A DNA stretch of 64,000 bases from Mobula hypostoma (lineage: Eukaryota), in the NCBI RefSeq assembly GCF_963921235.1, contig NC_086097.1, positions 161,760,001-161,824,000 of the forward strand, written 5' to 3'. Shown here in pieces: positions 1,700 through 63,960 of the stretch. The translations under genes and the position numbers were made by a program. The notes below the pieces were generated by a model, which had not been told where the DNA came from, made no database searches, and saw only the letters and a list, made by a program, of their open reading frames with translations. How positions within the stretch are numbered: position 1 is the stretch's first letter; every line of letters begins with the position of its first letter.

Positions 1700-2190
1700 C
1701 TGGATTCTTCCACATACCCTTATTTTCCATAGCCTCCACCCCTCACTTCTCTACCTATCACCCACACTCTCCTCACAACTGGGTCCTTATTCATTCCTCT
1801 CTTGAACCCACATCCCCACTATTCCAATCTAACCACCATCCCTCCTTTATTTGGTTCCGTTTCACCCTTTTTAAAAAAAAAAAATCAAATTCTATATTCG
1901 GCAACTCTTGTTGCTACTTACCACCTCTCAGCCTCTGTCACCATATCTACCCTTTCCACTGGCACAAGTCTCCAATTCCGAATGAACACATCACCTGTAA
2001 CCCTCAGTCGCTTGCCATCTGTTCCATCACTCCTCCTCACTTTATACTGGCTATCTCTCCTTTATCAGACCAGATGAAAATCTTGACTCAACCTCAACTG
2101 ACAGTTTATCTCCACAGATGCTACCTGGCCCACTGAGTTCCTCTGGCAGCTTGATTTTTACTCCAGATTCCAGCATCTGCAATCTCTTGT
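1700..2190 (+). mobile_element. Old Penelope-like element 3' region (pyrimidine-rich tract plus terminal repeat, decayed hammerhead)
   Basis: C/T-rich tract followed by CCACAGATGCTACCTGGCCCACTGAGTTCCTC...CCAGATTCCAGCATCTGCA, the same terminal motif that lies downstream of the GIY-YIG ORF at 20410-20500. Confidence 0.6.
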
Positions 2191-11889: not shown

Positions 11890-13797
11890 CATAGAAACCA
11901 TAGAAACTACAGCACAGAAACAGGCCTTTTGGCCCTTCTTGGCTGTGCCGAACCATTTTCTGCCTAGTCCCACTGACCTGCACATGGACCATATCCCTCC
12001 ATACACCTCCCATCCATGTATCTGTCCAATTTATTCTTAAATGTTACAAAAGAACCCGCATTTACCACCTCGTCTGGCAGCTCATTCCATACTCCCACCA
12101 CTCTCTGTGTGAAGAAGCCCCCCCCTAATGTTCCCTTTAAACTTTCCCCCCCTCACCCTTAACCCATGTCCTCTGTTTTTTTTCTCCCCTTGCCTCAGTG
12201 GAAAAAGCCTGCTTGCATTCACTCTATCTATACCCATCATAATTTTATATACCTCTATCAAATCTCCCCTCATTCTTCTACGCTCCAGGGAATAAAGTCC
12301 TAACCTATTCAACCTTTCTCTGTAACTGAGTTTCTCAAGTCCCGGCAACATCCTTGTAAACCTTCTCTGCACTCTTTCAACCTTATTTATATCCTTCCTG
12401 TAATTTGGTGACCAAAACTGAACACAATACTCCAGATTCGGCCTCACCAATGCCTTATACAACCTCATCATAACATTCCAGCTCTTATACTCAATACTTC
12501 GATTAATAAAGGCCAATGTACCAAAAGCTCTCTTTACGACCCTATCTACCTGTGACGACACTTTTAGGGAATTTTGTATCTTATATTCCCAGATCCCTCT
12601 GTTCCACTGCACTCCTCAGTGCCTTACCATTAACCCTGTATGTTCTACGTTGGTTTGTCCTTCCAACATGCAATACCTCACACTTGTCAGTATTAAACTC
12701 CATCTGCCACTTTTCAGCCCATTTTTCCAGCTGGTCCAAGTCCCTCTGCAGGCTCTGAAAACCTTCCTCACTGTCTACTACACCTCCAATCTTTGTATCA
12801 TCAGCAAACTTGCTGATCCAATTTACCACATTATCATCCAGATCATTGATATAGATGACAAATAACAATGGACCCAGCACTGATCCCTGTGGCACACCAC
12901 TAGTCACAGGCCTCCACTCAGAGAAGCAATTCTCTACCACCACTCTCTGGCTTCTTCCATCGAGCCAATGTCTAATCCAATTTACCACCTCTCCATGTAT
13001 ACCTAGCGACTGAATTTTCCTAACTAACCTCCCATGCGGGACCTTGTCGAAGGCCTTACTGAAGTCCATGTAGACAATATCCACTGCCTTCCCTTCATCC
13101 ACTTTCCTGGTAACCTCCTCGAAAAACTCCAACAGATTGGTCGAATATGACCTACCACGCACAAAGCCATGTTGACTCTCCCTAATAAGCCCCTGTCTAT
13201 CCAAATGCTTGTAGATTCTGTCTTTTAGTACTTCCTCCAATAACTTACCTACTACTGACGTTAAACTCACCAGCCTATAATTTCCCGGATTACTTTTCGA
13301 TCCTTTTTTAAACAACGGAACAACATGAGCCACTCGCCAATCCTCCAGCACTTCACCTGTAGACAGCGACATTTTAAATATTTCTGCCAGGGCCCCTGCA
13401 ATTTCAACACTAGTCTCCTTCAAGGTCCGAGGGAACACTCTGTCAGGTCCCAGGGATTTATCCACTTTAATTTTCCTCAAGACAGCAAGCACCTCCTCCT
13501 TTTTAATCTGTACAGTTTCCTGGGTCTCACTACTTGATTCCCTCAATTCCATAGATTTCATGCCAGCTTCCTTAGTAAATACAGATGCAAAAAACCTATT
13601 TAAGATCTCCCCCATTTCCTTTGGTTCCACACAAAGCCGACCACTCTGATCTTCAAGAGGACCAATTTTATCCCTTACAATCCTTTTGCTCTTAATATAC
13701 TTGTAAAAGCTCTTTGGATTATCCTTCACTTTGACTGCCAAGGCAACCTCATGTCTTCTTTTAGCCCTCCTGATTTCTTTCTTAAGTATTTTCTTAC
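11890..13797 (-). mobile_element. Young 5'-truncated CR1 LINE
   Basis: Long ORF2 remnants 12581-13741 and 12082-12612; (CATAGAAAC)2 tail near 11890. Confidence 0.97.
12082..13741 (-). pseudogene. CR1 ORF2 reverse transcriptase, frameshifted near 12590 and in a C-run near 12120
   Basis: PGNYRLVSLTS, QHGF, YMDFSKAFDKVPH, SGVPQGSVLGPLLF, KFADDTK motifs. Confidence 0.95.
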
Positions 13798-14180
13798 ATA
13801 CTGCATTATTGCTGGTGGAGGGAGTGAGTGCTTAGAATGAGTCATTTTGGCTGCTTTGTCCTGTGCAATTTTTTTTTGTTTTGTTAGACTTGGCAATAAT
13901 ATTATAAAGAATTCTTCCAACTTGTACAGTGATTTCATGAGATTTGGACTAGTATATGTAGCATTGGATTCTGAAAGAGCAATTAATTGGTCTTGAATTA
14001 GTTCAGTGTACAATTGCACAATTTTTGGATGTGGGTTTGGCACATGAAGGGCAATTGAGGAAGCTTGGACTATATTTATTGTAGTCAACAAGAATTGAGT
14101 GATCTTATTCAGATATTGTTTCTTAATAGGCTTGCACTGTAGATCCTGAGAGGCTGTTTCTCTTTTGTTGGCAAAAAGAA

Positions 14181-14282
14181 TTAGTCCTGACGAAGGGTCT
14201 CGGCCTGAAACGTCGACTGCACCTCTTCCTACAGATGCTGCCTGGCCTGCTGTGTTCACCAGCAACTTTGATGTGTGTTGCT
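14181..14282 (+). mobile_element. ~100-bp solo Penelope-like terminal repeat fragment
   Basis: Near-identical to the reverse complement of 20445-20545; TAGTCCT occurs at both 14182-14188 and 14282-14288. Confidence 0.85.
14182..14219 (+). ncRNA. Minimal type I hammerhead ribozyme motif
   Basis: TAGTC-CTGACGA-AGGGTCTCGGCCT-GAAAC-GTC-GACTG: stem I AGTC/GACT, CUGANGA and GAAA core boxes, short stem II, GUC cleavage triplet ending at 14214. Confidence 0.8.
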
Positions 14283-14456
14283 AGTCCTCAGATACTAGGC
14301 TGATTATTTAATTGAATTGACTTTTTTTCTTACATCCTTCACATACATGAGGAGTAAAAATCATGTATGTGAAATATGTAAGAAATAATTAGTCTCAGGA
14401 TACTAGGCTGACTATTTAAAACTAGGATGTGAAATTGCTTAATACCAAGAGTTGTA

Positions 14457-19510: not shown

Positions 19511-20265
19511 ATTCAATTCAATTCAAGTTTAATTGTCATTCAACTGTACATGAATACCCATAAATGCAGACAAATGAGACAGTTACTCTGGAGCCAAGGT
19601 CCAAAGCACAGTACACAATCACACACTACACAAAGCACACATACCACAGGTAAGATAACAAGTACATGTAAGATGGCAGTAAAATACAGCCATGCAAAAA
19701 AAAAGTCCAGAGCCTTAGTCCAGGAATGCTGTTGAAATCTGTAATCACATCCAGCTTGTCTTTGGCCGAGCAAACACTGGGGGTCAGCACTGACTCCAGC
19801 CTGGAATCCGTGCCACACCGGCTTTGACACCTCTCTCCTGGCAACTGTAAACAGGTGACTGCAGCTTGAGGCCTAGTTCTCGCTATGACCGAGACAAGCA
19901 GCTCCCCTGCTGTCTGCCACTAAATCGGTGAATCAGATTTGCAGTTTTCCACATTTACAATGTCCAAAAAAAAATCACAAGAAAAGCAACTAAGACGGTC
20001 ATTTGCTATTAGACTGCACACCTCCTTCGCGCACTGACTACTCCAAAGACTCTGATGCAAGCAGCAGCACGATCTGCACCAAGTTCAGCTCCTTCAGTTT
20101 CTCCACCACTGAGCAACTTACCCTCGGGGAAGACCTGCAGTACTTTAACTTCTTAATGTCTTGCAGGATTTTGTGATCATAAAAAATACGTTTACAAAGG
20201 ATAGTAGCACCCTTTGACTCTGTAGCAGCTGCTGCGATTGAATATGCTGCCATCTTTCTGGAAAC
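19511..20265 (-). mobile_element. Short non-autonomous LINE-like element
   Basis: (ATTCA)n tail at 19511; AAGATGGC leader near 20250; short ORF relic IFYDHKILQDIKK; no RT. Confidence 0.5.
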
Positions 20266-20505
20266 ACTTGGTGTTTGCAGAAGCTCTGTGGAAGAAGTGC
20301 AAATGGCCCACCTACCCCATTGCTGGAATAGTGCATTTCTCACATTAGTCTTGCTGACCACCACAGAATCCACAAAATTATCATGGAAGCAGTCAGTAGC
20401 ATCTATTCAAACACAAGGAATTCTGCAGATGCTGGAAATTCAAGCAACACACATCAAAGTTGCTGGTGAACGCAGCAGGCCAGGCAGCATCTCTAGGAAG
20501 AGGTA

Positions 20506-20543
20506 CAGTCGACGTTTCGGGCCGAGACTCTTCATCAGGACTA
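20506..20543 (-). ncRNA. Minimal type I hammerhead ribozyme motif
   Basis: Minus strand TAGTC-CTGATGA-AGAGTCTCGGCCC-GAAAC-GTC-GACTG; one mismatch in stem II. Confidence 0.75.
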
Positions 20544-20853
20544 ACTGAAGGGAGAGCTAGTAAGAGATTTGAAAGTGGGAGGGGGAGGGGAGATCCAAAA
20601 TGATAGGAGAAGACAGGAGGGGGAGGGATGGAGCCAAGAGCTGGACAGGTGATTGGCAAAAGGGATATGCAAGGATCATGGGACAGGAGCCCCAGGGAGA
20701 AGGAAAAGGGGAAAGGGGGAGGGGGGGAGAACTCAGAGGATGGGCAAGGGGTATAGTCAGAGGGACAGAGGGAGAAAAAAGAGAGAGAGAGAGAGAGAAA
20801 GAATGTGTGTATATAAATAAATAACGGATGGGGTACGAGGGGGAAGTGGGGCA

Positions 20854-21147
20854 TTAGCAGAGGTTAGAGAAGTCAGTGTTCATACCATCAGGTTGGAGGC
20901 TACCCAGACGGAATATAAGGTGGTGTTCCTCTAACCTGAGTGTGGCTTCATCTTTACAGTAGAGGAGGCCATGAATAGACACATCAGAATGGGAATGGGA
21001 TGTGGAATTAAAATGTGCGGCCACTGGGAGATCCTGCTTTCTCTGGCGGACAGAGCGTAGGTATTCAGCAAAGTGGTCTCCCAGTCTGCGTCGGGTCTCG
21101 CCAATGTATAGAAGGCCACATCGGGAGCACCGGACGCAGTATATCAC
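20854..21147 (-). pseudogene. Penelope GIY-YIG endonuclease domain (truncated ORF C-terminus)
   Basis: IYCVRCSRCGLLYIGETRRRLGDHF..VAAHFN..LEEHHLI..QPDGMN. Confidence 0.92.
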
Positions 21148-21330
21148 CCCAGCCGACTCACAGGTGAAGTGTCACCTCACCTGGAAGGACTGTCTGGGGC
21201 CCTGAATGGTGGTGAGGGAGGAAGTGTAAGGGAACAAGTGCAGAGTTTTCAGTAATACATTTGGTGTTAGAGTCCTTTTACTCCTATAAAAGTATATAGC
21301 AAATTTCAGTTTGTTTTGACTAACCAAATA

Positions 21331-22877
21331 CAGGTTTCCCCCGCCATCCGAAGGTAGAGCGTTCCTATGAAACAGTTCGTGAGCTGGAATGTCGTAAAGC
21401 GAAGAAGCAATTACCATTTATTTATATGGGAAAAATTTGTGAGCGTTCACAGACCCAAAAATAACCTACCGAATCATGCCAAATAACACATAAAACCTAA
21501 AATAACAGTAACATATAGTAAAAGCAGGAATGATATGATAAATACACAGCCTATATAACGTAGAAATACTTCTCTACAATCATTGCCTGCACTATTCTCC
21601 GTAGGGAAAATCTCACGCAAGCACCGTCGGCAAAAACACTCTCTCCAGTAACCTTTAAGCTATGAAGCTGCCAAATCATACCAAATAACACATAAAAATA
21701 CACAGCCTATATAAAGTAGAAATAATGTATGTACAGTGTAGTATCACTTACTGGAACCAGGAAGACATCGTCGAGCACGCTGATGATGGTGTGTTAGGCT
21801 GAGTTGTCAGAGATTGGGGTGGTGCAGTGGCCCCCACCCTGCAGGCTGCCGACCAATACTGATCAGCGAAGCATGCAGAGGTACAGCGGTAGCCGGGACG
21901 TACCCAGTACATCTTTAAGAAAAAAGCCAATCGGCAATGGCCTCTGATCTGGGACGACATTTAAATGCCGGGCGGCACCTAATTAATTAGCTTGTTTATT
22001 TCAGCTTTTTTTCTTAAAGATGTGCTGGGTGCCTCCCGGCTTCTGCTGCATTCTCCACGAATCGGTATCAGTCCGCGGCCCGGGGGTTGGCGTGGTGGGA
22101 CACTGGCATGCCATCTCATTGTCGTCTGTTTCCATGAGGGCTGGCAGCTCATCTTCTCCTATGACAGCCTGCCTTGATATCGAAGGTTGAGGTTTGTCGT
22201 CTGCTCTGGCTGATGTGGAAGGCTTGAAAAATGACAGTATGCTTGACTGCTAGCTTCACGCATTTTTCTATCATACAGTTCTTCGTAACACTCAAACCAC
22301 CTTGCCAATTTGCCCTAAACCGACGTACCCTTTCAAAATTAAAGTCGTACTTTATCATTGCAGTGAAAATCTCACGCAGTTGCTTCACGTTCAGTTCCTG
22401 GACGACTTCACTTCTGGTCCGTTCGCTACTGCATTCGGTTTCAATTGTTATCCTTTCCTCTTCCAATTGCATCAGCTCTTCATCTATCAGTTCTTGGTCA
22501 TGGGATGCCAAAACCTCTTCAACATCATCTTTGTCAACTTCCACAAGCCAAACTCACTTCGTCCTTGCTTCGTTCACCACGATCGAAACGCTTAATTATG
22601 TCTAGTTTTACGCTAAGTGCAACACCCTTACAAGCTCTTTTAGGCTTTTCCGATACCTTAGAACTCATCTTGCAAGCGGGTGCTCACAAGCACGTGTTTA
22701 AGCAATGCCAGCTAGAATGCAGTTCTGAATCCGGGGGAGAGCGGCTGCTCAGGGCGTGCGCTGCCTTTTTTCGTAACAGTGAAAACACCTTCTGTTAGCG
22801 AAAACAGGTAACTAATGTCGGTCTTTCGTAACAGTGAGGTTTCGTAAAGCGAACGTTCGAAAAGCAGGGGACACCTG
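21331..22877 (-). mobile_element. Tigger/pogo-like DNA transposon deletion derivative (copy 1)
   Basis: TA|CAGGTTTCCCCCGC ... GCAGGGGACACCTG|TA; HTH relic VKLDIIKRFDRGERSKD joined to acidic C-terminus EVDKDDVEEVLASHDQEL. Confidence 0.9.
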
Positions 22878-23757
22878 TAAGTTGTTTTATTGTAAGTTAA
22901 TTTTTTGTCTGAAAAACAGCAACAATGTGAAAGCAAAATGTGGATTCAGAAGCCTGAAAAAAAGCAAAAAAAAAGTTGGATATAACAGTTTGGGAGGTAC
23001 TGTCAAAGCTAGAAAAGGTGAGAAGATTTAAGCAATTGCATACATGAAAAGGAAGAGGATGGAAGAGAGATGCTGAGATGCATCCTAGGATGTGCTGGGA
23101 TGCTAATGCTATAACCTGGGGTCATCAGGTGTTTTGGGTTTTTCAAAATTAGACACTCTTGCCCAGGTGACCCAGTTGGGGTTGATCAGGCCCTGGCTTT
23201 TGTTGCAGCAGCATTTGTCCATGGGTCACACTTCTTGATCCATAGCCATCTAGTAGCTCACTCAGCAGCCCCTGTGATGGTCCTGATGGATCTTTTCTTT
23301 GCAGCTCCCTCAATGGTAAGAAGAGCGCAGGTTCTGCACAGCGAGCAGCCAGCAAAACCTTTACATCCCACCTCTATAGGCTTGCAATATGCCTGTACCT
23401 CTGCCTCTGGTTCTGCTCTACCAGGTCCTGGTGTTTGGTTTACTTGCGATCAAATGCCTCTGCAATCTAGTCTTCCCAAGGAACTGACAGTGTCTGGAAG
23501 AATGACCATGTTTGGCCTCAGGGATGATAATGCAATGAACTCAAAATAGAGTTTCGGTGCCGGTCAGATATGTGGCTGGCAAGCCTGCTAGTGATCTCAC
23601 TGAGGTGGTTGGTCTCAAATGTATAAGAGAGAATAACTGTGATGGGCAAAAGAGGTTAAGTGGTTCTAAAACTTCAGCTGGACTTGAGTATTTCCAGCAA
23701 TTTTTTTTTGGCACAACTTTATCTAGTTGTGTTAATCTTTTGGGTCAGAATTACTTT

Positions 23758-24109: not shown

Positions 24110-24895
24110 AACATATTGGAGGGTTCCCCCCCTCCCCTCCACTCTCCACTGTCCACAGGGCTTGCTCCATCTGCGATTCTCTTGTCCATTCATCCCTCCC
24201 CTCTAATCTCCCTCCTGGCACGTATTCCTACAAGTGACGGAAATGCTACACCTGCCCATTCACTTTCCTTGCCTCCTATTCAAACAGGCCTTCCAGGTTA
24301 AGCAACATTTCAGCTGTGAGTCTGTTGGGATTGTGTCTTGTATTTTGTGCTCGTGATGTGGCAGCCTCTACATTGGTGATACCAAATGTAAATTGGGGAA
24401 CTACTTTGTCGAACACCTCCGCTCAATCTGCCAAAAGTGGAATTTCCTGGTGGCCAACGTTTATAATTCCTATCCCCATTCCTGTTTTTACATGTCAGCC
24501 CATAGCTGCCTCTTTTTCCATGATGAAGCCACTCTCGGTGAAGGAGCAACACCTTATATTCTGTCCAGGTAACCTCAAGCTGATAGCATAAACATAGACT
24601 CCTGGCAACTTATTTTTTAAATTCTTCCCCCCCCCTCCCCTTTACCTCTTCTATTCTCCCTTCTGGTTTCTTATCTCCTGCTTCCCTTTCTCCCATGCTC
24701 CACCCTCCTATCAGTTTCGTTCTTCAGCCCTTTACCTTTCTCACCTACCTGTCTTCAACTTTTAACTATCATTTTCTAGCTAGTCCTCCTCCTCCCCCAC
24801 ACCTTTTTATTCTTCCAGTCCTGAAGAAGGGTCTTGGCCTGAAACTTCGACTGTTCATTCAACTCTGTAGAAGACTATCTGACTTGCTGAGATGG
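24110..24895 (+). mobile_element. Decayed Penelope-like element
   Basis: Homologous to 20408-21235 (LYIGDT and KEQHLIF relics), C/T-rich tract, terminal hammerhead motif. Confidence 0.85.
24816..24853 (+). ncRNA. Minimal hammerhead ribozyme motif (variant)
   Basis: CAGTC-CTGAAGA-AGGGTCTTGGCCT-GAAAC-TTC-GACTG; perfect 5-bp stem I, but G>T breaks the ACGT stem III. Confidence 0.6.
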
Positions 24896-35719: not shown

Positions 35720-36010
35720 GACTGCAGATATTGAAATGGATCAATACACAAAAAATGCTGGAGAGGTTCAGCAAGTCAGGCAACATCTGTGGAGAGAAAT
35801 GGACAGTAAATATTTTGGGCTGAGACCCAAGACCCTTCAGGACTGGAAAGAAAGGATAGAAGTCAGAACAAAAAGGTGGGGAGGGGAGGGGCATTGGATG
35901 GCACCTGATGGGTAAATTCAGGTGAGAGGGTGAAGATCAGTGGGGGGAGGGGCTGAGTGGGAATGATGTGAGAAACTGGGAAGTGATAGGTGGAAGAAAC
36001 AAAGGCCTAT
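35720..36010 (-). mobile_element. Old Penelope-like 3' fragment with disrupted hammerhead
   Basis: AATGCTGGAGAGGTTCAGCAAGTCAGGCAACATCTGTGG...GGGCTGAGACCC...TTCAGGACTG plus purine-rich tract. Confidence 0.7.
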
Positions 36011-37110: not shown

Positions 37111-37624
37111 ACGGATAGATGCGGACTTGGGGGAAATGGGAAAGTGGTCTGGCAATAGAATTAAAGAGCTGTTGAAGTGTTTAAAAACAATTGTTTTGTT
37201 CAAAAACCAAATGTGAAAGGGTGAAATGCAACTATAATTCAGGACCGCTTTTAGTGGAGTGAATGAATGCTGCTTGAATTCATAGTGTTAACCATGACTT
37301 TCAGGATACAAGCAAAATCTATGATTTGAGAAACATTGAATAGCTTGAACATGTAATAATGGATGAATCCAATTTGTTAATGGTGACATTTCAGTTGGAA
37401 TCCACATAGAATATCTTTGAGTTGGAGACATGGTTTTGGGAAAGAACCATGGCAATGTATCCTTATCAAAAACAAGAGTAATGTTGAAGAGCTGACTGGT
37501 TCTCTGAAGATGGTGAGCCTAAAGAAATGAGAAATGTAATGATTTATCAGATGGGACAAATAAAGATAGCCTGTGAAAGTGTCGTAGAGATTCTTTCTTT
37601 CAACATTCAGTTATGCAGCTTGTA

Positions 37625-39225
37625 CAAACCCCATTTTCAGAAATGTTGGGATATTTTCCAAAATGCAATAAAAACAAAAATCTGTGATATGTTAATTCAC
37701 GTGAACCTTTATTTAACTGACAAAAGTACAAAGAAAAGATTTTCAATAGTTTTACTGACCAACTTAATTGTATTTTGTAAATATACACAAATTTAGAATT
37801 TGATGGCTGCAACACACTCAACAAAAGTTGGGACAGAGGCATGTTTACCGTTGTGTTACATCACCTTTCCTTTTAATAACACTTCTTAATCGTTTTGGAA
37901 CTGTGGATACTAATTGTAGTAGATTTGCAATTGGAAATTTTGTCCATTCTTGCTTGATATAAGACTTCAGCTGCTCAACAGTCCGTGGTCTCCGTTGTCT
38001 GATTCTCCTCTTCACGATGCGCCATACATTTTCAATAGGAGACAGATCTGGACTGGCAGCAGGCCAGTCAAGCACACGCACTCTGTGTCTACAAAGCCAC
38101 GCTGTTGTAGCCCGTGCAGAATGTGGTCTAGCATAGTCCTGCTGAAATAAGCATGGATGTCCCGGGAAGAGACGTCGCCTTGATGGCAACATATGTCTCT
38201 CTAAAATCCTAATGTACGCCTCAGAGTCAATGGTAGCTTCATATACATGCAACTCACCCATGCTGTGGGCACTGATGCACCCCTGTACCATTGCAGATGC
38301 TGGCTTTTGCACCTTTCGCTGATAACGATCTGGATGGTCGTTTTCATCTTTGGTATGGAGAACTCGACGCCTGTTTTTTCCGAAAACTAGCTGAAATGTG
38401 GACTCATCTGACGACAGCACACTGTTCCACAGTCTTTCGGTCCATCTGAGATGCGCTTGGGCCCAGAGAACTCGCCGGCATTTCTGCATGGAGTTGATGT
38501 ATGGCTTCCTCCTTGCATAATACAGTTTCAAGTTTCATTTCTGGATGCAGCGACGGACTATGTTGAGTGACAATGGTTTTCCAAAGTACTCCGGAGCCCA
38601 GGTGGCTATAATTGTCACAGTAGCATGACTGTTTCTTAGGCAGTGCCGCCTGAGGGCTCGAAGATCACGCACATTCAACAGTGGTTTCCGACCTTGCCCT
38701 TTACGCACTGAGATGTCTCTGAATTTCTCTGAATCTTTTCACAATATTATTTACTGTAGATGTTGAAAGACCTAAATTCTCCACAATCTTGCATTAAGAA
38801 ATGTTCCTTTTGAACTAACAATTCTCTCACGAATTTTGGCACAAAGGGGTGAGCCACGACCCATCCTCGGTTGCAAAGACTGAGCCTTTGATGGACACTA
38901 CTTTTATACCCAGTCATGATACCTCACCTGCTACCAATTAGCCTGCTTAATGTGGAGTCTTCCAAACCGGTGTTACTTGAATATTCTGTGCACTTTTCAA
39001 TCTTATTTTAACTCTGTCCCAACTTTTGTTGAGTGTGTTGCAGCCATCAAATTCTAAATTTGTGTATATTTACAAAATACAATTAAGTTGGTCAGTAAAA
39101 TTAGTGAAAATCTTTTCTTTGTACTTTTGTCAGTTAAATAAAGGTTCACGTGAATTAACATATCACAGATTTTTGTTTTTATTGCATTTTGAAAAATATC
39201 CCAACTTTTCTGGAAATGAGGTTTA
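37625..39225 (-). mobile_element. Full-length Tc1 (DD34E) transposon with 214-bp TIRs
   Basis: TIRs 37625-37838 and 39012-39225 nearly identical; TA at 37623-37624 and 39226-39227; internal transposase. Confidence 0.97.
37845..38864 (-). pseudogene. Tc1 transposase, N-terminal half disrupted, catalytic half open
   Basis: ATG at 38864 (MGRGSPLCAKIRERIV) followed by frameshifts and stops; ORF 37845-38531 has SDESTF, FQQDYARPH, SPDLSPIENVW with 34 residues between D and E. Confidence 0.93.
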
Positions 39226-40009
39226 TAGATAAATATGCAGATGTGTTGAACAGTATTTTGTTTAAAACAAAGTACATGAACTTGAGGTGGTCTAAAGGAA
39301 ACAGGCACAAACCTAATCTTGGTATAATCAAGTTCTGCCACTGTTCAGAGTTGCTGATAGAGTGATAATGAAATTCATGTCAGATTAACGTCAGACATGG
39401 CAGAAGGTAATGGTAATAGTTGCACCTGAGATCTCTGAGGTTGTACATAAAGGGAGCATTCTATATCAGATGCATAGACACTTGTCTAGATCTAAAATAC
39501 CATACAATTAACCCAAATCTGTCTTTTCTCAGGATGTGGCAGTCTCTGTCAAAGTCAGTTTTAATTGCCCATTTTTCTTTTGTTTTTTGGGAAGGGGATG
39601 TTGAGCCATTTACTTGGATCCATTCAGTAATTCTAATGAAAATACTTCTACAATGTGAAGGAACAACTTATATTTTCAAGGCAGGATGATGCATCATTTG
39701 GAGAGTAACCAGCTCATATGCCTGCTGCCTTTGATGGTAGACATCATGAATTTGTGAGATGTTGGGAGTAACTCAAGTGAGTAACTGGTGTTTAATTTGG
39801 TAAATTGGACACTGCAGCTACATTATACCAATGGTGAAGGCAATAAGTGAATAGGATGGTACCAATCAAGTGAGCTGCCATGTCCTGGGTAATACTAAGC
39901 TCTATGATCGTTGGAGTTGTATGCATTCAGGCATGTGGCGACTATTCCATTACAAGCCTGACTTGTGTGAAATTGTGAAAAGGCTTTGGGTTCACTTGCT
40001 CCATCATAG

Positions 40010-41600: not shown

Positions 41601-43277
41601 ACATCACCCAGAAAAACTCGTGTTAAATTACGGATCTGCCCCAGATTACAGATGCCTGACTTGTGTACAGCCTGTACATAAGAGCTTTAAGGAGACCAGC
41701 GGAATGGATTTCCTGGGCTGTGGGGATGCAGGCATCTTCTGCTGTGTAGAAACTGAGTTCACAGCAGTATCATTGAAAGTTTAAGTTAAATGCCCTTGTT
41801 TAACTACTGTTGCTCTTGGTTGGCCCATGCTTTTATCTCAATATGTTGCTGGCTTGTGAACTGTGGTGCCAACCCACAAAGTCACAGGAATACAAGTAAA
41901 GTTCACTCTGGCAGCAGATACCTCTCTGGAACTTTGAGGCATCAGTGCTAACTGCTGCAAGACTGCGCCACCTAGATATGTGTATATCTTGAGTGTCAAA
42001 AGTACTCGGCTTAAATATTTTAAAACTGATTCAGTTAAATGGTGACTTGGTTGATTTGATACTAATTTGGCCACAAGAATTTGCAAGCCGCGTTTCATCT
42101 ATTAGTTATGAAGGTTGTTTTGAATTTTGTGGAGCTATATTAGAACTATAATTCTGTCATCTTAATTTCCCATGATACATAAATGAGTAACTACAAGAAC
42201 TGTTTGGATTCTGATCGCTGAAAAATCAGTAATTGAAATTTATTAACCTTTAGAAGGCAGCCCAGTTTTCCTCACCCAATCAATCACTCTATCCTTGCAG
42301 TACTTATGTAAAGCAGCTTATCCAGTAGGTGTTTGGTCTGGTGCCAGATTAACAGTCATAGGCCTTGGCACTCCAGAAAATCGTGGGCCTGTAGCATATC
42401 CCTGCTGCCCTTTCCCTGCTATTTAGAATTAATTCTCATTCTAAATATATAAAGATTGCTGCTGTGGTTCTTTCTTTCCAGTCTAGGGAAGATTCCTTTC
42501 AAGTTATTAGTTTAAATAATATTTTAAATTAGCTTTTGTTGGCAGAATATTAATTTAAATTATAAATGGATTTTCTTATTCAAGTAGTTGGTAATTTTAA
42601 TACAGGATTTTTTTCTGGGATTATTGAACTATTTTGAACTTCCATGATTTTGTAACGTGGAAGTTGCATGATAAATTTCCTAACATACTGTAGAACATAG
42701 AATAGTACAGCACAGGAACAGGCCCTTCAGCCCACAATGTTGTGCGAACTCAATTAAATTAGGAATAAAATGACAAACTAATTTTATGCCTACACAATAT
42801 CCATATCCTTCCACTTTCTTCACATTTATGTTCTTATCTAAATGTCTCGTGAAAGTGTCCAATGGTTTTGCCTCTACCAGTATCCCAGGCAGTGCATTCA
42901 GGCACCCACCATTCTGTGTTAATAAGAAAAACATGCCCCTCACATCTTTGAAATTACCCCCTCTCACCTAAAATACGTGACTTCTGGTAATAAATATTCC
43001 AACCCATGGAAAAAGATATTATCTGTTTATCTATGCCTCTCATTATTTTCTAAACTTCTATCAGATCTCTCCTCAACCTCCATCACTCCAGAGGAAAAAA
43101 CACGTTTGTTCAACCTCTCATTATAGCACATACCTTCTAATTCAGGCAACAACATAGTACACTTCTTCGGCACTCTCTAAAGCCTTGACAACTTTACCAT
43201 TATGGGGTGACCAGATATGTATACAATATTCAAGACACAGCCTAACTGGAGTTTTATAAAGCTGCATTATAACTTAA

Positions 43278-43478
43278 AAGTTGCTGGTGAACGCAGCAGG
43301 CCAGGCAGCATCTCTAGGAAGAGGGACGGTCGACGTTTCGGGCTGAGACCCTTCGTCAGGACTAACTGAAAGAAGAGCTAGTAAGAGATTTAGAGATGCT
43401 GCCTGGTCTGCTGCGTTCACCAGCAACGTTTATGTGTGTTACTTGAAATTCCAGCATCTGCAGATTTCCTCGTGTTTG
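43278..43478. mobile_element. Fold-back mini Penelope-like insertion within CR1
   Basis: 43278-43391 is a minus-strand terminal repeat piece, 43391-43478 a plus-strand piece; ~37-bp inverted arms. Confidence 0.88.
43327..43364 (-). ncRNA. Minimal type I hammerhead ribozyme motif
   Basis: Minus strand TAGTC-CTGACGA-AGGGTCTCAGCCC-GAAAC-GTC-GACCG. Confidence 0.72.
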
Positions 43479-47439: not shown

Positions 47440-50405
47440 CATGAACGTAGAATAGTACAGCACAGTATAGGTCCTTCGGCCCACAATGTTGTGCCGACCC
47501 TTATTCCCTGCCTCCCATATAACCCCCCCGCCACCTTAAATTCCTCCATATACCTGTCTAGTAGTCTCTTAAATTTCACTAGTGTATCTGTCTCCACCAC
47601 TGACTCAGGCAGTGCATTCCACACACCAACCACTCTCTGAGTAAAAAACCTTCCTCTAATACCCCTTGAACTTCCCACCCCTTACCTTAAAGCCATGTCC
47701 TCTTGTATTGAGCAGTAGTGCCCTGGGAAAGAGGCGCTGGCTGTCCACTATATCTGTTCCTCTTAATATCTTGTATACCTCTATCATGTCTCCTCTCATC
47801 TTCTTCCTCTCCAAAGAGTAAAGTCCTAGCTCCCTTAATCCCTGATCATAACGCATACTCTCTAAACCAGGCAGCATCCTGGTAGATCTCCGCTGTACCC
47901 TTTCCAATGCTTCCACATCCTTCCTATACGGAGGCGACCAGAACGGGACACAGTACTCCAAGTGTGGCCTAACCAGAGTTTTATAGAGCTGCATCATTAC
48001 ATCGCGATTCTTAAACTCTATCCCTCGACTTATGAAAGCTAACACCCCATAAGCTTTCTTAACTACCCTATCCACCTATGAGGCAACTTTCAGGGATCTG
48101 TGGACATGTACCCCCAGATCCCACTGCTCCTCCACACTACCAAGTATCCTGCCATTTACTTTGTACTCTGCCTTGGAGTTTGTCCTTCCAAAGTGTACCA
48201 CCTCACACTTCTCCGGATTGTACTCCATCTGCCACTTCTCAGCCCACTTCTGCATCCTATCAATGTCTCTCTGCAATCTTCGACAATCCTCTACACTATC
48301 TACAACACCACCAACCTTTGTGTCATCTGCAAACTTGCCAACCCACCCTTCTACATCCACATCCAGGTCATTAATAGAAATCACAAAAAGCAGAGGTCCC
48401 AGAACTGATCCTTGTGTGATGCCACTAGTCACATCCCTCCAATTCAAATGTACTCCCTCTACCACAACCCTCTGCCTTCTGCAGGCCTTCTGAATAAGCC
48501 TACTGTGTGGAACCTTGTCAAATGCCTTACTAAATTCCATGTAGATCACATCCACTGCACTACCCTCATCTATATGCCTGGTCACCACCTCAAAGAACTC
48601 TATCAGGCTTGTTAGACACAATCTGCCCTTCACAAAGCCATACTGACTGTCCCTGATCAGACCATGATTCTTCAAATGCCCAGAGATCCTATCTCTAAGA
48701 ATCTTTTCCAACAGCTTTCCCACCACAGATGTAAGGCTCACTGGTCTATAATTACCTGGACTATCCCTACTACCTTTTTTGAACAAGGGGACAACATTCA
48801 CCTCCCTCCAATCCTCCGGTACTATTCCCGTGGACAACGAGGACATAAAGATCCGAGCCCGAGGCTCAGCAATCTCTTCCCTCACCTTGTGGAGCAGCCT
48901 GGGGAATAATCCGTCAGGCCCCGGGGACTTATCCGTTGTAATGTATTTTAACAACTCTAACACCTCCTCTCCCTTAATATCAACATGGTCCAGAACATCA
49001 ACCTCACTCATGTTGTCCTCGCCTTCATCAAGTTCCCTCTCATTGGTGAATACTGAAGAGAAGTATTCATTGAGGACCTCGATCACTTCCACAGCCTCCA
49101 GGCGCATCTTCCCACCTTTATCTCTAATTGGTCCTACCTTCACTCCTTTCATCATTTTGTTCTTCCCAGAATTGAAGAATGCCTTGGGGTGTTCCTTTAC
49201 CCTACTCGCCAAGGCCTTCTCATGCCCCCTTCTTGCTCTCCTCAGCCCCTTCTTAAGCTCCTTTCTTGCTACCCTATATTACTCAATAGACCCATCTGAT
49301 CCTTGCTTCCTGAACCTCATGTATGCTGCCTTCTTCCACCTGACTAGATTTTCCACCTCACTAGTCACCCATGGTTCCTTCACCCAACCATTCTTTATCT
49401 TCCTCACCGGGACAAATTTATCCCTAACATCCTGAAAGAGATCCCTAAACATCGACCACATATCCATAGTACATCATCCCAATTCACACCTGCAAGTTCT
49501 AGCCTCATAGCCTCATAATTTGCCCTTCCCCAATTACAAATTTTCCTGTCCTCTCTGATTCTGTCGTTTTCCATGATAATGTTAAAGGCCAGGGAGTGGT
49601 GGTCACTGTCCCCCAGATGCTCACCCACTGGGAGATCTGTGACCTGACCCAGTTCATTGCCTAATATGAGATCTAGTACAGGTTTCCCCTGCTATCCAAA
49701 TGTAGAGCATTCCTGTGAAACTGTTCATAAGCTGAAATGGCGTAAAGCGAAGAAGCAATTACCATTAATTTATATGGGAAAATATTTTGAGTGTTCCCAC
49801 ACCCAAAAAATAACCTACCAAATCACACCAAATAACACTTAAAAGCTATAATACTAACATATAGTAAAAGCAGAAATGATATAATAAATACACAGCCTAT
49901 ATGAAGTAGAAATGTGTGTATAGTGTAGTTTCACGTAACAGAATCGGAAGCTTTGAGCCAAAATAGATTGGTTGAAAAAAAAATTGGCACGTCACGCATT
50001 CACACGTACACGCACATCATGCATGCCCACGTACACGCATCAACACGTTACACATGCACATGTGCACACATCCTCATGTCATGCATGCGCATACACCTGC
50101 CCGCGCAAGGCTTCGTGGTCATGGTAGTCTTTCGTGGGGTAAACACAAGTTTAAAGTGAGCGTCCTTTTTCGTAAAAGCGAAAATCCTCTTTCGGTTAAT
50201 GAAAACAGGTACTAATGCAGGTCTTTCGTAAAAGTGAAATGTTGTAAAGAGAATGTTCGGAAAGCGAGGGACACCTGTATGGCATTCCCCCTAGTCGGCC
50301 TGACAACATATTGTGACAGGAATCCGTCCTGGACACACTTAACAAACTCTGCCCTGTCTAAACCATTGGAACTAATCAGGTACCAATCAATATTAGGGAA
50401 GTTGT
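47440..50405 (-). mobile_element. Young CR1 LINE (EN C-terminal part, RT, tail) interrupted by a Tigger-like MITE
   Basis: ORFs 48076-49212 (KFADDTK), 47656-48075 and 49404-49628 (HLGDSDHH); same subfamily as 4410-5180. Confidence 0.96.
49679..50277 (-). mobile_element. Tigger-like MITE (599 bp)
   Basis: TA|CAGGTTTCCCCTGC ... GCGAGGGACACCTG|TA; CR1 reads through on removal (ATCTAGTA|TGGCATTCC). Confidence 0.92.
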
Positions 50406-52028: not shown

Positions 52029-52193
52029 CATTTATCCGGAGTTCTATATTTTTGAGCTTGACCTCTTGCTCAACTCTTTTATCTCACTAAATGCTTTCCT
52101 TTGTTAATACACTCCATAAAAATGTTTTTGTTCCAATTTTGATCATCCATTTCTTCTGACAATGTGGAATAATGTATGTGAACAAAAATAATA

Positions 52194-53716
52194 CAGATGT
52201 CCCCCGCTTTTCGAACGTTTGCTTTACAAAACCTCACTGTTACGAAAGACCTACATTAGTACCCTGTTTTCACTTTCAGAAGGTGTTTTCACTGTTACGA
52301 AAAAAAATTCAGCGCGCAATAAAAGGCAGTGCGCCCCGAGCAGCCGCTCTCCCCCTGATTCAGAACTGCTTTGCTTTAACACGTTTGCAAGATGAGTTCT
52401 ATGGTATCGGAAAAGCTTGAAAGAGCTCGTAAGGGTGTTACACTTATGGTAAAACTAGACATAATTAAGCATTTTGATCATGGTGAACGAAGTAAGGACA
52501 ACGTGAGTTTGGCTTGTGGAAGCTGATGAACATGGTGTTGAAGAGGTTTTGGCATCCCATCACCAAGAACTGACAGATGAAGAGCTGATGCAATTGGAAG
52601 AAAAAAGGATAACAATCGAAACCGAATCAGTAATGATAAAGTACGACTTTAATTTTGAAAGGGTACGTCGGCTTAGGGTATATTTGCAGGATGGTTTGAG
52701 TTCTTGTTAAAGAACTGTGTGACAGAAAAATGTGCGAGGCTCAGCAGTCAAGTAAGCCTTCCACATCAGCCACCGCAGCCGATGAACCTCGACCTTTGAC
52801 ATCGAGGCAGGCAGTCATAGGAGAAGATGAGCTGCCTGGCCTGATCGACAGTGAGATGACACCCCAGTGTCCCACCACCCCAACCCCCAGGCCACGGACA
52901 GATACCGATTCGCGGAAAATGCGAAGGTAGCCGGGAGGCACACAGCACATCTTTAAGAAAAAAGCCGAAATAAACATGCTAATTAATTAGGTGCCGCCAA
53001 CACGTAATTGTCGGCCCAGATCAGAGATGATGCAATTGGAAATCGGCACTGATCTGGGCCAACAATTACAGGCGGCACCTAATTAATTAGCATGTTTGTT
53101 TCAGCTTTTTTCTTAAAGATGTGCTGTGTGCCTCCCGGCTACCACTGCACCCCTGCGTTCTTCGCGGCAATGTATCGGGTTGGCGGCCCGGAGGGTGGGG
53201 GCCACTGCACCACCCAGCCTGCAATGATTCAGTCTAACACACCATCATCAGTGTGCTCGCTGTCTTCCAGATTCCCGTAAGTGATACTACACTGTACATA
53301 CATTATTTCTACTTTATATAGGCTGTGTATTTTTACGTGTTATTTGGTATGATTTGGCACCTTCATAGCTTACTGGAGAGAGTGTTCTTGCCAACAGCGC
53401 TTGCGTGAGATTTTTTGCCGATGGCGCTTGCGTGAGATTTTCACTACGGAGAACAGTTCAGTAATGATTGTGGAAAAGTATTTGTACTTTATATAGGCTG
53501 TGTATTTATCATATCATTCCTGCTTTTACTATATGTCACTGTTATTTTAGGTTTTGTGTGTTATTTGGCATGATTTGGTAGGTTATTTTTGGGTCTGCGA
53601 ATGCTCACAAAATTTTCCCATATAAATAAATGGTAAATGCTTCTTCGCTTTACGACATTTCGGCTTACGAACCGTTTCATAGGAACGCTCTACCTTCGGA
53701 TGGCGGGGGAAACTTG
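52194..53716 (+). mobile_element. Tigger/pogo-like deletion derivative (copy 2)
   Basis: TA|CAGATGTCCCCCGC ... GCGGGGGAAACTTG|TA; KRARKGVTLMVKLDIIKHFDHGERSKD HTH relic; inverted homologue of 21331-22877. Confidence 0.92.
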
Positions 53717-54679
53717 TATGCATTTTTAAGGCAACTGAAGTCTCTTAAATAAGTTGATCTAGGCAGGGAATTGGTAATTCCTAATGTAGTTTCCTCTTAC
53801 ATCTTTACAGATGTTATGGGATAGCCTAATTTTCTCCCATGCTTGTTTTCTATGAAATGCTTGTAGACAGTCCAGAGTTGCTTATCTCATTATCAGAAAA
53901 TAATCATAGCTATCCATACATTAAAGATTAAAGACAGCTGATGCAACAAAGGATTCAACAATGCCTGTAGGTCCAGTCTCGTGAATGGATTAATGCATTT
54001 ATACTTTTCCTTCTGGACTTGTGACTGAATCTGTTTCAGACAGCTGGCTCAAATATTGTCTGGCTGTTGTATGAGCCTAGAAGAAATAGCTTTTAGCCAT
54101 CTTGTAGCAGTTCCTTGGGGGCTTGTGTTCTCAGCATGCGATGGATGCTAATTTGCCATGAAAGCTTTCACTTGCTGCCAAATGTGAAATCTGTCTTGAA
54201 TTAGTGCTATTGATAAATATAGCGAAAAGTGGGTTTAACACAAAGACCGAATTTTCAATCAGCATCACTCAAGGTTTTTGAGTAGTCCTCTAAGTTCCTG
54301 AAAGTGATATTTTTATTTCCCAGAGAGAATAGTCAGAACAGCTAATCATTTAAATGGGGGTCCTAATAATGAGTTCTCTCATTAATTTTAAATTAGTTAT
54401 TCAATAGCAAATTTGACTTCTTCCTATAATTGTATGTTGAAGTTCCAGCTTTTACAGCAAATTAAGTAAAATACTTCAATGTTGAAAATTTTCAGCAAGG
54501 CTGTGGATAATTTCAGCATAGCTCTTGGAACACGTGGCCCCTCCTGTTAAATGGCAGTTGTCAGCTATCCATGACGTGTTCACAGTGTACGGAATACCCT
54601 GGTTTGCCATACTATTATCTGTTAAGGAATTCTTGGCTTGTTCACCTAGAACCACTGGGGCTGGTTTGGTGAGAAGATC

Positions 54680-56994: not shown

Positions 56995-57430
56995 AACACA
57001 CACAATATGCTGGAGGAACTCAGCAGTTCATCAGGATGAAGGGCCTTGGTCTGAAACATTGACTGGTTATTTCTATCCATAGATGTTACCTGATCTGCAG
57101 AGTGCATCCAGCATTTTGTGTGTGTTAGACTGGATTTCTAGCATCTGCTGGAGGGTCACTCCAAATTCTCACTCACCTGTTCTGTCAATTGTCATCTGTC
57201 TTAATGTAGTCTCTATGCCCCACGAGAACCACAGAACAAAGGCAGATGCAAAGCTGGTGATCACATACACAACAGTTTCTGCAAATGCTGGAAATCTGGA
57301 GTTGCACATACACACAAAATGCTGCAGGAACTCAGCAGGTCAGGCAGGATCAATGGAGAGGAATAAAGAGTTGACGTTTTGGGCCTAGACCTTCATTGGG
57401 ACTGGAAAGGAAGTGGGAAGAAGCAAACTT
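56995..57430. mobile_element. Penelope-like terminal fragments: fold-back unit 56995-57150 and minus-strand unit 57265-57430
   Basis: AACACACACAATATGCTGGA ... TCCAGCATTTTGTGTGTGTT arms around GATGAAGGGCCTTGGTCTGAAACATTGACTG. Confidence 0.75.
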
Positions 57431-61545: not shown

Positions 61546-63564
61546 AACCCAACATTTTTGATCCTTTACTTTTAAAACAAAGATTAGTTCAGCAATTATT
61601 TGTGGCAGAGTATTTCACCCATGATAGGGTTGAATCTTCCTGGATGTCGCCAGTACTCCCACCCATTGGCATGGGAGTAAATTCCAGACTTGTACATTTT
61701 GTGGAGTGTATGGAACTGCAGATTGGTTGTGCAGTGGCAGAGTCCTGCCTGAAATATTGCTACTCAAATCCCATGCCAGGTCAGATTTTATATCAATGGG
61801 GATTGGGGGTCTGTGGATTGAAAGTAAATACCCATTTATTTACCTAATATTTTTGTTTGCTTACATTGTAATGGCTTTGAAAAAAATCTCAGTGGTTAGA
61901 GGTGCACTTCAAAAGCTTACTATCAATGATAATTTGAAAATAAATATAGCTGCATTCTCTCACCTTTACTTTTTGTCAGGAACTCGGAGATCAGAGTTTC
62001 CTTGCATACCTAATGCCTAGTTCAAGGGTGTGGAAGACTAGTGAGGTCAGTCCTCTATATCCAGTACTCATGACTGCGACTGTGCAGGAAAAGTGGGTAA
62101 TGATTCTGAGCCGTTGCTCAGATCTAGCAAAATTCTTCTGTTCTGTAACTGTCTTTTCGCACAAATTTTGTGTGCTGCAATAATATCTTGCAAATGTGTT
62201 GCTTGGATTTCCAGCATCTGCAGATTTTTTCTTGTTTGTGATATTTTCCTTGTTTTTTTTTATATAGATGTTTCCAATGAATATCACTAGATGGATGAGT
62301 GTGTATTACTTAATCTTCTGATACAAGTCTTAGATTAGGTTACTGGGATTTTGATAAAAACCTATTGATCAGATGGTATAATTTGAGTTGTTGGCTTTCA
62401 CTGTATTAACTTACTAAGTTTCTATTAACTTGAGGTTGTCCAAGCTATGATGAAGTCCCAGCTTTTTCCTCTTGCATTTTCCCATCATTCTTGTACTTTC
62501 TAATCTAAAGTAATTCCTGGTTAAGTGATTTTAAATATTCTCACTCTCATTTTTGAATTCCTCATTGGCCGCCCCCTTCTCACCTTGGTAATCACCCCGG
62601 CCCTAAAAATCTCTGCGATATCCATGTCTGTCTAATTCTGGCATCTGACTCATCATCCAGATTTAATTACCATGCCATGACAGCTGTGCCCTCATCTCCC
62701 AAGGCAGTTAGCTCTGTAATTTTCTCCCTAAATTTCACTTCTCTTCTCAACCTTCTCCTTTTAAGATAGTTGCTAAAACTGAGCTCATTCAAGAAGGCTT
62801 TGGTCTTCTGCCCGAACGTCTCTGTGGTTCAGTCAAATATTGCTTAATAATGCTTCTGCAAAGCACCTTGGGGCATTTTGTATACATCAAAGCTACAATG
62901 ATAAATGATAATTGCAATGTTGGAAACACTTTAAGTTGATTAATTAAGATGGTCATTTGTGAAGCATAAAGGTCCACCACTAAATGGAATATGTATTAGT
63001 TTAATGAATCTTCAAGTAAATAGGTAGTACTTGCTGGAACCAAACATTTTTAATATTGTGCAGCATAGCTGAGATCTACACAGCCTTAAGCTTGTATTAA
63101 TAATGAAAATTATATCTTGTTTTGATTTTCTGTCATCAAACATGTTTGTCACACCTGTCTGAAGAGTTAAAAGTCGTTTGAATTACAAAGGTAAGCTCAA
63201 TGAATTTAGAGCTCCATCTGAGTTTATTGACTTTTTAAAAAAAAACAAAAACTGAGTATAGTAGTTAAATACCTAGCATTCATTTAACTGTAGTTATATG
63301 TGAACTTGTATCGGTGGTTAACTGTATTTGTGAAGGATAAAGTGTTACAGTTACAGAAAAAGTGCAGGCAAGCAAACAATTTATATAGTAGATTGTGAGG
63401 TCAAGAGTTCTCATTAAACTCGGGGTTCATTCTGTAGTATTGCAACAGGATAGAAACTTTCCTTGAGCACAGTGGTTTGAATGTGCTTTAGGTTTTTGTA
63501 TATTCATGAGGGGGCTGGAATTATCAGGGTGGGTGGAGTCTTTAAATATGTTGTGTTATATACC

Positions 63565-63960
63565 ACAGAAGACAGGATTTCTTGGTGGCCACCCATTTCA
63601 CTTCAACTTCCCGTTCCCATTCTGCCATGTCGGTTCATGGCCCCTTCTACAGCTACGATGAGTTGGAGGAGCAATACCTCCTATACTGTCTGGTTAGCCT
63701 CCAATCTGATGGCATGAGCATCAATTTCTCAAACTTCTGATTCCTCTCACATCCCTTCTCTTCTCATTTGCCCCTCATCTGCTCATCACTAGTGGTGCCC
63801 CTCCTCCTTGCCTTTCTTGCTCGGTCCACTCTTCTTCCCTATCAGATTCTTCCTCCTTCAGCACTTCTTCCACCTATCACCTCCATCCCTCACCCACCCA
63901 TCTTCTGCCTTACCTGGTTTCACCTATCACTTGCTGGCTTGTGCTCCTTCCCCTTGCCTT
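63565..63960 (+). mobile_element. Decayed Penelope-like fragment
   Basis: GGTGGCCACCCATTTCA..GGAGGAGCAATACCTC..CCTCCAATCTGATGGCATGA homologous to 20854-21030. Confidence 0.8.

Follow-up and report, generated by a model that had tools for sequence, protein, structure and literature searches.

The hammerhead-bearing insert described here lies in the genome of the ray Mobula hypostoma, within the 64,000-nucleotide stretch that was analysed as a whole (hereafter, the window). We interpret it as a solo, 5'-truncated copy of the 3' end of an abundant, endonuclease-bearing Penelope-like retrotransposon, in which the minimal hammerhead is a likely inactive passenger, and we put the probability of this reading at roughly 0.87. 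The insert belongs to a family in which the same motif lies downstream of the endonuclease frame; it carries a 7-bp duplication identical to the first seven bases of the ribozyme, and it has accumulated four private changes.

The hammerhead motif

The minimal type I hammerhead motif occupies positions 14182-14219 on the plus strand (hammerhead numbering and the features compared follow PMC4209133). Stem I is formed by UAGUC (14182-14186) and GACUG (14215-14219), with four Watson-Crick pairs and one U-G pair. The 5' arm is followed by the core segment C3-A9 (CUGACGA, 14187-14193), an unpaired extra nucleotide between A9 and position 10.1 (A14194), and a 4-bp stem II in which GGGU (14195-14198) pairs with GCCU (14203-14206) across the loop CUCG. 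The GAAA segment (G12-A15.1) lies at 14207-14210, C15.2-G16.2 at 14211-14212, U16.1 at 14213 and C17 at 14214, the cut being predicted after C14214. All that is left of stem III is the palindrome ACGU at 14210-14213. The focal copy keeps 12 of the 12 hammerhead core bases, and the original prediction of a complete core with stem I, a short stem II and a stem III reduced to ACGU is thus borne out base by base. A private C-to-T change in CpG context at 14206 (+), position 11.1, where both of the other young copies that cover the site have C, converts the G10.1-C11.1 pair, which is G-C in those two copies, to a G-U that still pairs.

When both strands of the window were scanned with a type I descriptor, a single locus was recovered, 14182-14219, and in 100 second-order Markov simulations of the window, we obtained 0.13 loose matches per window and no strict ones. 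Two Rfam scans, which returned 12 and 4 weak matches, respectively (E-values up to 10), included no hammerhead model among them; the missing stem III may be the cause. The folding energy of the motif is not significant either (z-score of -1.24; 22 of the 200 shuffles were equally good). Given the lack of an Rfam match and the unremarkable folding energy, the case for the motif rests on the core letters and the genomic context, and judged by these, 14182-14219 can be regarded as a confirmed minimal hammerhead motif.

A Penelope-like family with a GIY-YIG endonuclease

Over 102 nt (14181-14282, +), the insert is 94% identical to 20544-20443, that is, to the 3' end of another, endonuclease-bearing copy of a Penelope-like family within the same window, in agreement with the predicted Penelope origin. 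The focal copy is 5'-truncated and lacks a 35-nt tail; the letters that are certainly inserted are 14189-14281, and two of the four private changes in the 102 nt fall at CpG. The absence of coding sequence from the insert, which had also been predicted, reflects its origin: it matches a region ~310 nt past the point where the endonuclease frame stops in the copy at 20408-21231 (-).

The latter copy, characterized by Pfam, protein search and tblastn, is young and itself 5'-truncated, and consists of a broken GIY-YIG endonuclease frame, the 3' region, the hammerhead (20543-20506) and the tail. The endonuclease frame (20857-21171, -) lies upstream of the hammerhead on the same strand, matches the Pfam GIY-YIG profile with an E-value of 0.0018, below the curated cut-off, and is 89% identical to the Mobula Penelope-type protein P0001; a tblastn match of 88% over 142 aa was also obtained for this copy. 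A protein search with this frame yielded seven matches, six of which, at 69-89% identity, come from Mobula hypostoma or Hypanus sabinus, the seventh being 45% identical. In five ray relatives, the endonuclease is preceded by a CxxC linker, and the linker in turn by RT-like sequence. The RT, in which Pfam reported no domain for any of the seven protein relatives, was read by eye; the RT-like sequence of the ray relatives contains a YxDD-type motif, exact in three of the five. The truncated copies in the window lack the RT part. The linker, a CX2-5CxxC zinc finger between the RT and the endonuclease, is present in the five aligned ray relatives and is degraded at 24238, in an older relative (24130-24854, +) that comprises the degraded linker, the endonuclease and a hammerhead with ACUU instead of ACGU. 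The CxxC linker marks the Neptune and Nematis clades (10.1101/2021.04.23.441226), and the family would accordingly be labelled 'Neptune-like' only, an assignment based on the linker and not on an RT phylogeny.

The tail is optional: 3 of the 11 non-self matches to the long copy share an end point that lies 35 nt past where the focal copy stops. A head-to-head inverted pair of the same family is located at 43277-43478 (43391-43277 on the minus strand and 43391-43478 on the plus strand, the plus copy with the tail). An optional tail and an inverted 5'-truncated partner have been described for Penelope elements (PMC11167929, 10.1101/2021.04.23.441226), and these hallmarks are all present in the window, together with a short target duplication (7 bp). 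The inverted pair seems to split a CR1-like LINE fragment and is flanked on either side by AACTT, possibly a 5-bp duplication with a few extra bases. An older inverted arrangement, from a related Penelope subfamily and with a decayed core, is located at 56995-57148, and further decayed Penelope copies were noticed at 57264-57403 (-), 35742-35828 (-), 62195-62238 (+), 63552-63739 (+) and ~2070-2180 (+).

The family of the insert is a very abundant repeat. The summed contig depth in run X1, which is not a copy number, reaches 3.3 million in the bin that contains the insert, compared to 19.8 in the neighbouring bin, and the contigs of organism B show the same pattern, with high depth over the insert bin. 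A search for further copies in public viral contigs, metagenome contigs and prokaryote genomes produced no matches. Two Hypanus gene models, P0004 and P0005, annotated as 'divergent protein kinase domain 1C' and 'mucin-2 isoforms', are made up for the most part of RT-endonuclease sequence from Penelope and are likely to be annotation artefacts or exonised elements.

Junctions and the probable route of insertion

The insert is bounded by two plus-strand copies of TAGTCCT, a 7-bp target-site duplication. The left copy (14182-14188) coincides with the 5' arm of stem I plus C3 and U4, and the right copy occupies 14282-14288. TAGTCCT is the longest word common to both junction zones and occurs 13 times in 128,000 positions. 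The same letters are also the element's own, and the microhomology with the target extends to 8 nt if T14181 is counted. An older host duplicate of the pre-insertion site (14382-14419, +) reads through the site once and can stand in for the empty allele: 34 of its 38 columns fit the empty-site model (score of 52, compared to 43 for the filled junction), and TAGTC is preceded by AAT, as in the left flank, and not by TGC, as in the 3' end of the element. Because the host duplicate reads AAT-TAGTC without interruption, the target apparently held TAGTCCT once and the insertion duplicated it; because the element's own letters equal the target word, the 5' junction is an 8-nt microhomology. The duplication is deduced from this local host duplicate because the true empty allele is not among the 15 joints listed of the 1,720 in the contigs; one X1 contig joins the left flank to 14204 and falls below the 31-letter bridging rule.

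Judging from the junction letters, the 5' junction most likely arose through microhomology, the template being an RNA that had not been cleaved. Rotifer Penelope elements are described as having microhomology 5' junctions and 8-10 bp duplications (PMC3846280). The original statement that the insert begins at the ribozyme is therefore correct with respect to the coordinates but does not hold if the 5' end is understood as a cleavage product, given that the junction consists of the target duplication and microhomology. Formation of this end by ribozyme cleavage was considered and rejected: cleavage would start the insert at 14215 and remove the core, and so cannot have set the end at 14182. We also rejected the idea that a second element unit begins with the right-hand TAGTCCT, because the host duplicate carries the same word.

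We propose that insertion began with an endonuclease nick at AAT|TAG in the target, and that reverse transcription then started at the tail-less internal start, on RNA that was uncut at the focal ribozyme. A second nick would have been made 7 nt on from the first, and the 7-nt end of the target, TAGTCCT, could then anneal to the matching cDNA and prime the second strand. Such annealing would account for the insert stopping at the edge of stem I. The preferred site of the Anolis Poseidon enzyme is ATT, as described in PMC11167929. In the parent element, cutting by the motif would be expected to require the pairing of two tandem copies through ACGU, possibly aided by the element's protein; the lone focal copy has no such partner and is decaying. 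If this scheme is correct, the junction cleanly documents, in genomic DNA, an insertion that relied on uncleaved RNA and a target-primed second strand, the useful detail being that the target duplication and the 5' microhomology are the same seven bases and that the uncut ribozyme was copied whole.

Between the copies of the ~31-38 bp host duplication (14282-14311 and 14382-14419), there is a 66-nt AT-rich imperfect hairpin (14323-14388), possibly an older small insertion.

Predicted activity and conservation of the core

The focal copy is likely to be inactive, as suggested by its solo state, the G-U at 10.1-11.1, the predicted misfolding of the monomer and the published weakness of minimal hammerheads. 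In the predicted minimum free energy structure of the monomer (-11.0 kcal/mol), GACG pairs with CGUC across the core, whereas a fold made up of just stems I and II comes to -7.0 kcal/mol. Pairing of two molecules through ACGU would be weak (-3.1 kcal/mol), and the homodimer is predicted to form an extended, inactive duplex. Replacement of G10.1-C11.1 by G-U would be expected to lower the cleavage rate, and this pair is highly conserved among minimal hammerheads.

The conservation of the pair is reported in PMC4209133, which also describes a minimal motif of S. mansoni as failing to cleave as a monomer and showing low cleavage as a dimer, in line with the original remark that the minimal type I hammerheads of Penelope-like elements are thought to cleave as dimers. 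According to PMC11167929, the Anolis motif cleaved only in the presence of the element's protein, insertion in vitro did not depend on the motif, and its cut site was not marked by any read ends. Among the Xenopus retrozyme constructs described in 10.64898/2026.07.22.740005, one of nine cleaved.

Among the eight aligned copies in the window, the focal copy is the sole one to pass the descriptor. The full core is kept in four of the eight, two on the minus strand and two, the focal copy and one other, on the plus strand; this other plus-strand copy (24816-24853) lies 10.6 kb away and has lost the palindrome (ACUU). None of the nine pairs shows a two-sided compensatory change over the eight copies, several of which are badly decayed, and the fraction of differing cells is 10/94 in the core and 40/240 downstream, in what is a small sample of mixed age.

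A possible host transcript

It had been suggested that, if the plus strand is transcribed as part of a host pre-mRNA, the motif is a potential self-cleavage site. To this claim, the results lend no support: no host gene or transcribed strand is established, the copy is solo, its 10.1-11.1 pair is decayed, and the sole other plus-strand copy in the window with a full core lacks the palindrome. Host genes were sought by running Pfam on 14 of the 47 long frames of the window, and the matches were to mobile-element domains and one weak DUF. A splice-site scan yielded 19 candidate exons, of which the best-scoring alone was examined further. This 164-bp candidate, 20122-20285 (-), located ~120 bp from a Penelope copy, has a strong acceptor and donor and one open frame, for which there was no match in solved structures, protein search, Pfam or Atlas. 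Four phmmer matches to this frame, all to repeat proteins with scores summed over 5-11 repeats (for a mucin, 23.5 bits per repeat), were rejected as evidence of a gene.

In two runs that we guess to be RNA, the unique bin to the left of the insert has no cover and some other unique stretches are covered by low-depth contigs; the contigs reveal neither strand nor transcript ends, and the pattern constitutes evidence neither way. None of the listed contigs of organism B spans the insertion site. Within the frames, exon candidate and contigs examined, we see no sign of host domestication of the focal hammerhead.

Alternative explanations

The 100-nt ribozyme-first unit could instead be a discrete RNA or cDNA species, either a small non-autonomous element or the product of an RT stop at stem I, with its 5' end set by the ribozyme structure and target homology merely helping at this site. 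The 5' end of the insert does lie no more than 8 nt away from the edge of stem I, a joint in run X1 from 14273 back to 14187 (depth of ~210) corresponds to head-to-tail units of ~90 nt elsewhere, and animal retrozymes have been proposed to derive from pseudo-LTRs (10.64898/2026.07.22.740005). However, only one of the three young ribozyme-bearing copies in the window starts at the stem I edge, the others starting 26 nt and ~690 nt upstream; the 8-nt target match suffices to explain the focal junction; and there is no tandem unit at the focal locus. We consider this explanation doubtful, albeit worth keeping in view; it is compatible with an inactive focal copy. The head-to-tail ~90-nt units in the run X1 contigs are themselves possibly retrozyme-like tandems. 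A chance look-alike without ribozyme ancestry, which the Rfam and folding results and the absence of two-sided compensatory changes in nine pairs over eight copies might seem to favour, is by contrast largely refuted and extremely unlikely: none of the 100 simulated windows contained a strict match, the motif sits where Penelope elements carry one, and it displays an extra nucleotide after A9 and a palindromic 15.2-16.2 pair, recurring features that lie outside the descriptor as given in PMC4209133.

Cleavage of a host pre-mRNA would require the focal copy to reside in a plus-strand host transcript and to cut after C14214 by pairing in trans, through ACGU, with another copy. The intact core is in keeping with such activity, and the family is very abundant and represented in contigs of the two runs guessed to be RNA, so that partners could exist. 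Nevertheless, we find this scenario highly improbable, considering the weakness of the ACGU duplex and the inactive predicted homodimer, the lack of ACGU in the sole other plus-strand copy with a full core, the low published activity even in tandem, and the failure to identify a host gene, the best nearby candidate exon being on the minus strand and without a credible homolog. Just as improbable is the bolder scenario in which ray genomes are seeded with huge numbers of ribozyme-first 100-nt Penelope units, the 5' end being fixed at stem I and target bases completing the ribozyme, as in the focal copy, and in which sense copies within long nascent transcripts pair through ACGU, with the help of the element's protein, and cut host pre-mRNA measurably. 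Were it true, the seeded units would amount to a genome-wide distributed ribozyme and offer a direct handle on the role of the Penelope hammerhead.

Relationship to known hammerheads

Under the preferred interpretation, a truncated Penelope-like copy with a passenger ribozyme, the motif type is already known, and the ray family is an addition to a described class. Judging by its features, the focal motif is one of the minimal hammerheads of Penelope pseudo-LTRs, with one conserved pair decayed. It resembles those of the metazoan elements Xena, Poseidon and Neptune, from fishes, Latimeria and Xenopus (Cervera and De la Pena 2014, PMC4209133), in type I topology, a stem I of 4-5 bp, the unpaired base after A9 and the absence of a stem III beyond the palindrome; like the focal copy, these are mostly solo copies of truncated elements scattered genome-wide. 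It differs from the set described there in its host, a ray, and in the decay of G10.1-C11.1 to G-U, and from the S. mansoni motif in the same source in having a stem II of 4 bp rather than 7-8 bp. The ray family further resembles Poseidon of Anolis carolinensis (PAc; Frangieh et al. 2024, PMC11167929), in which two internal RT starts give rise to an optional tail of 30-40 nt, uncleaved RNA serves as the template for insertion and ATT adjoins the nick; unlike Poseidon as described in that work, the ray relatives carry the CxxC linker typical of Neptune and Nematis. With the vertebrate non-LTR retrozymes, reported in one chondrichthyan (10.64898/2026.07.22.740005), the insert shares the character of a short non-coding hammerhead-bearing sequence related to a pseudo-LTR, but those form tandem arrays, whereas the focal copy stands alone between the two halves of a target duplication.

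The addition of a ray family extends a hammerhead class described in fishes, coelacanth and frogs. The hammerheads of RECK and Clec2 are canonical motifs conserved in host genes, whereas the focal motif is part of a young copy of a repeat, lacks stem III and could not be assigned to a host gene. What they have in common is a hammerhead core in non-coding vertebrate DNA, in the domesticated cases a RECK intron and the Clec2 3' UTR (PMC6155905). No description of this ray Penelope-like family was found in the literature searched, which lay outside Repbase-type libraries, subscription papers and preprint supplements, and the two supplementary files of PMC4209133 that were searched contain no shark or skate name. 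In such an abundant family, the position of breakpoints and selection on the core could both be examined across the whole genome, which a single copy does not permit.

Other repeats in the window

The window contains two long LINE RT frames, 12082-13831 (-) and 47656-49278 (-), of 416 and 400 aa, respectively, the first of which matches Pfam RVT_1 with an E-value of 7.6e-37, and many shorter LINE RT fragments are spread across it. A DNA transposon, probably of the Tc1/mariner type, occupies 37623-39227; its terminal inverted repeats measure 216 nt (97% identical), and its DDE_3 frame lies at 37845-38534 (-). A further repeat of ~1.5 kb is present as two inverted copies, 85-95% identical, at 21328-22879 and 52192-53719.
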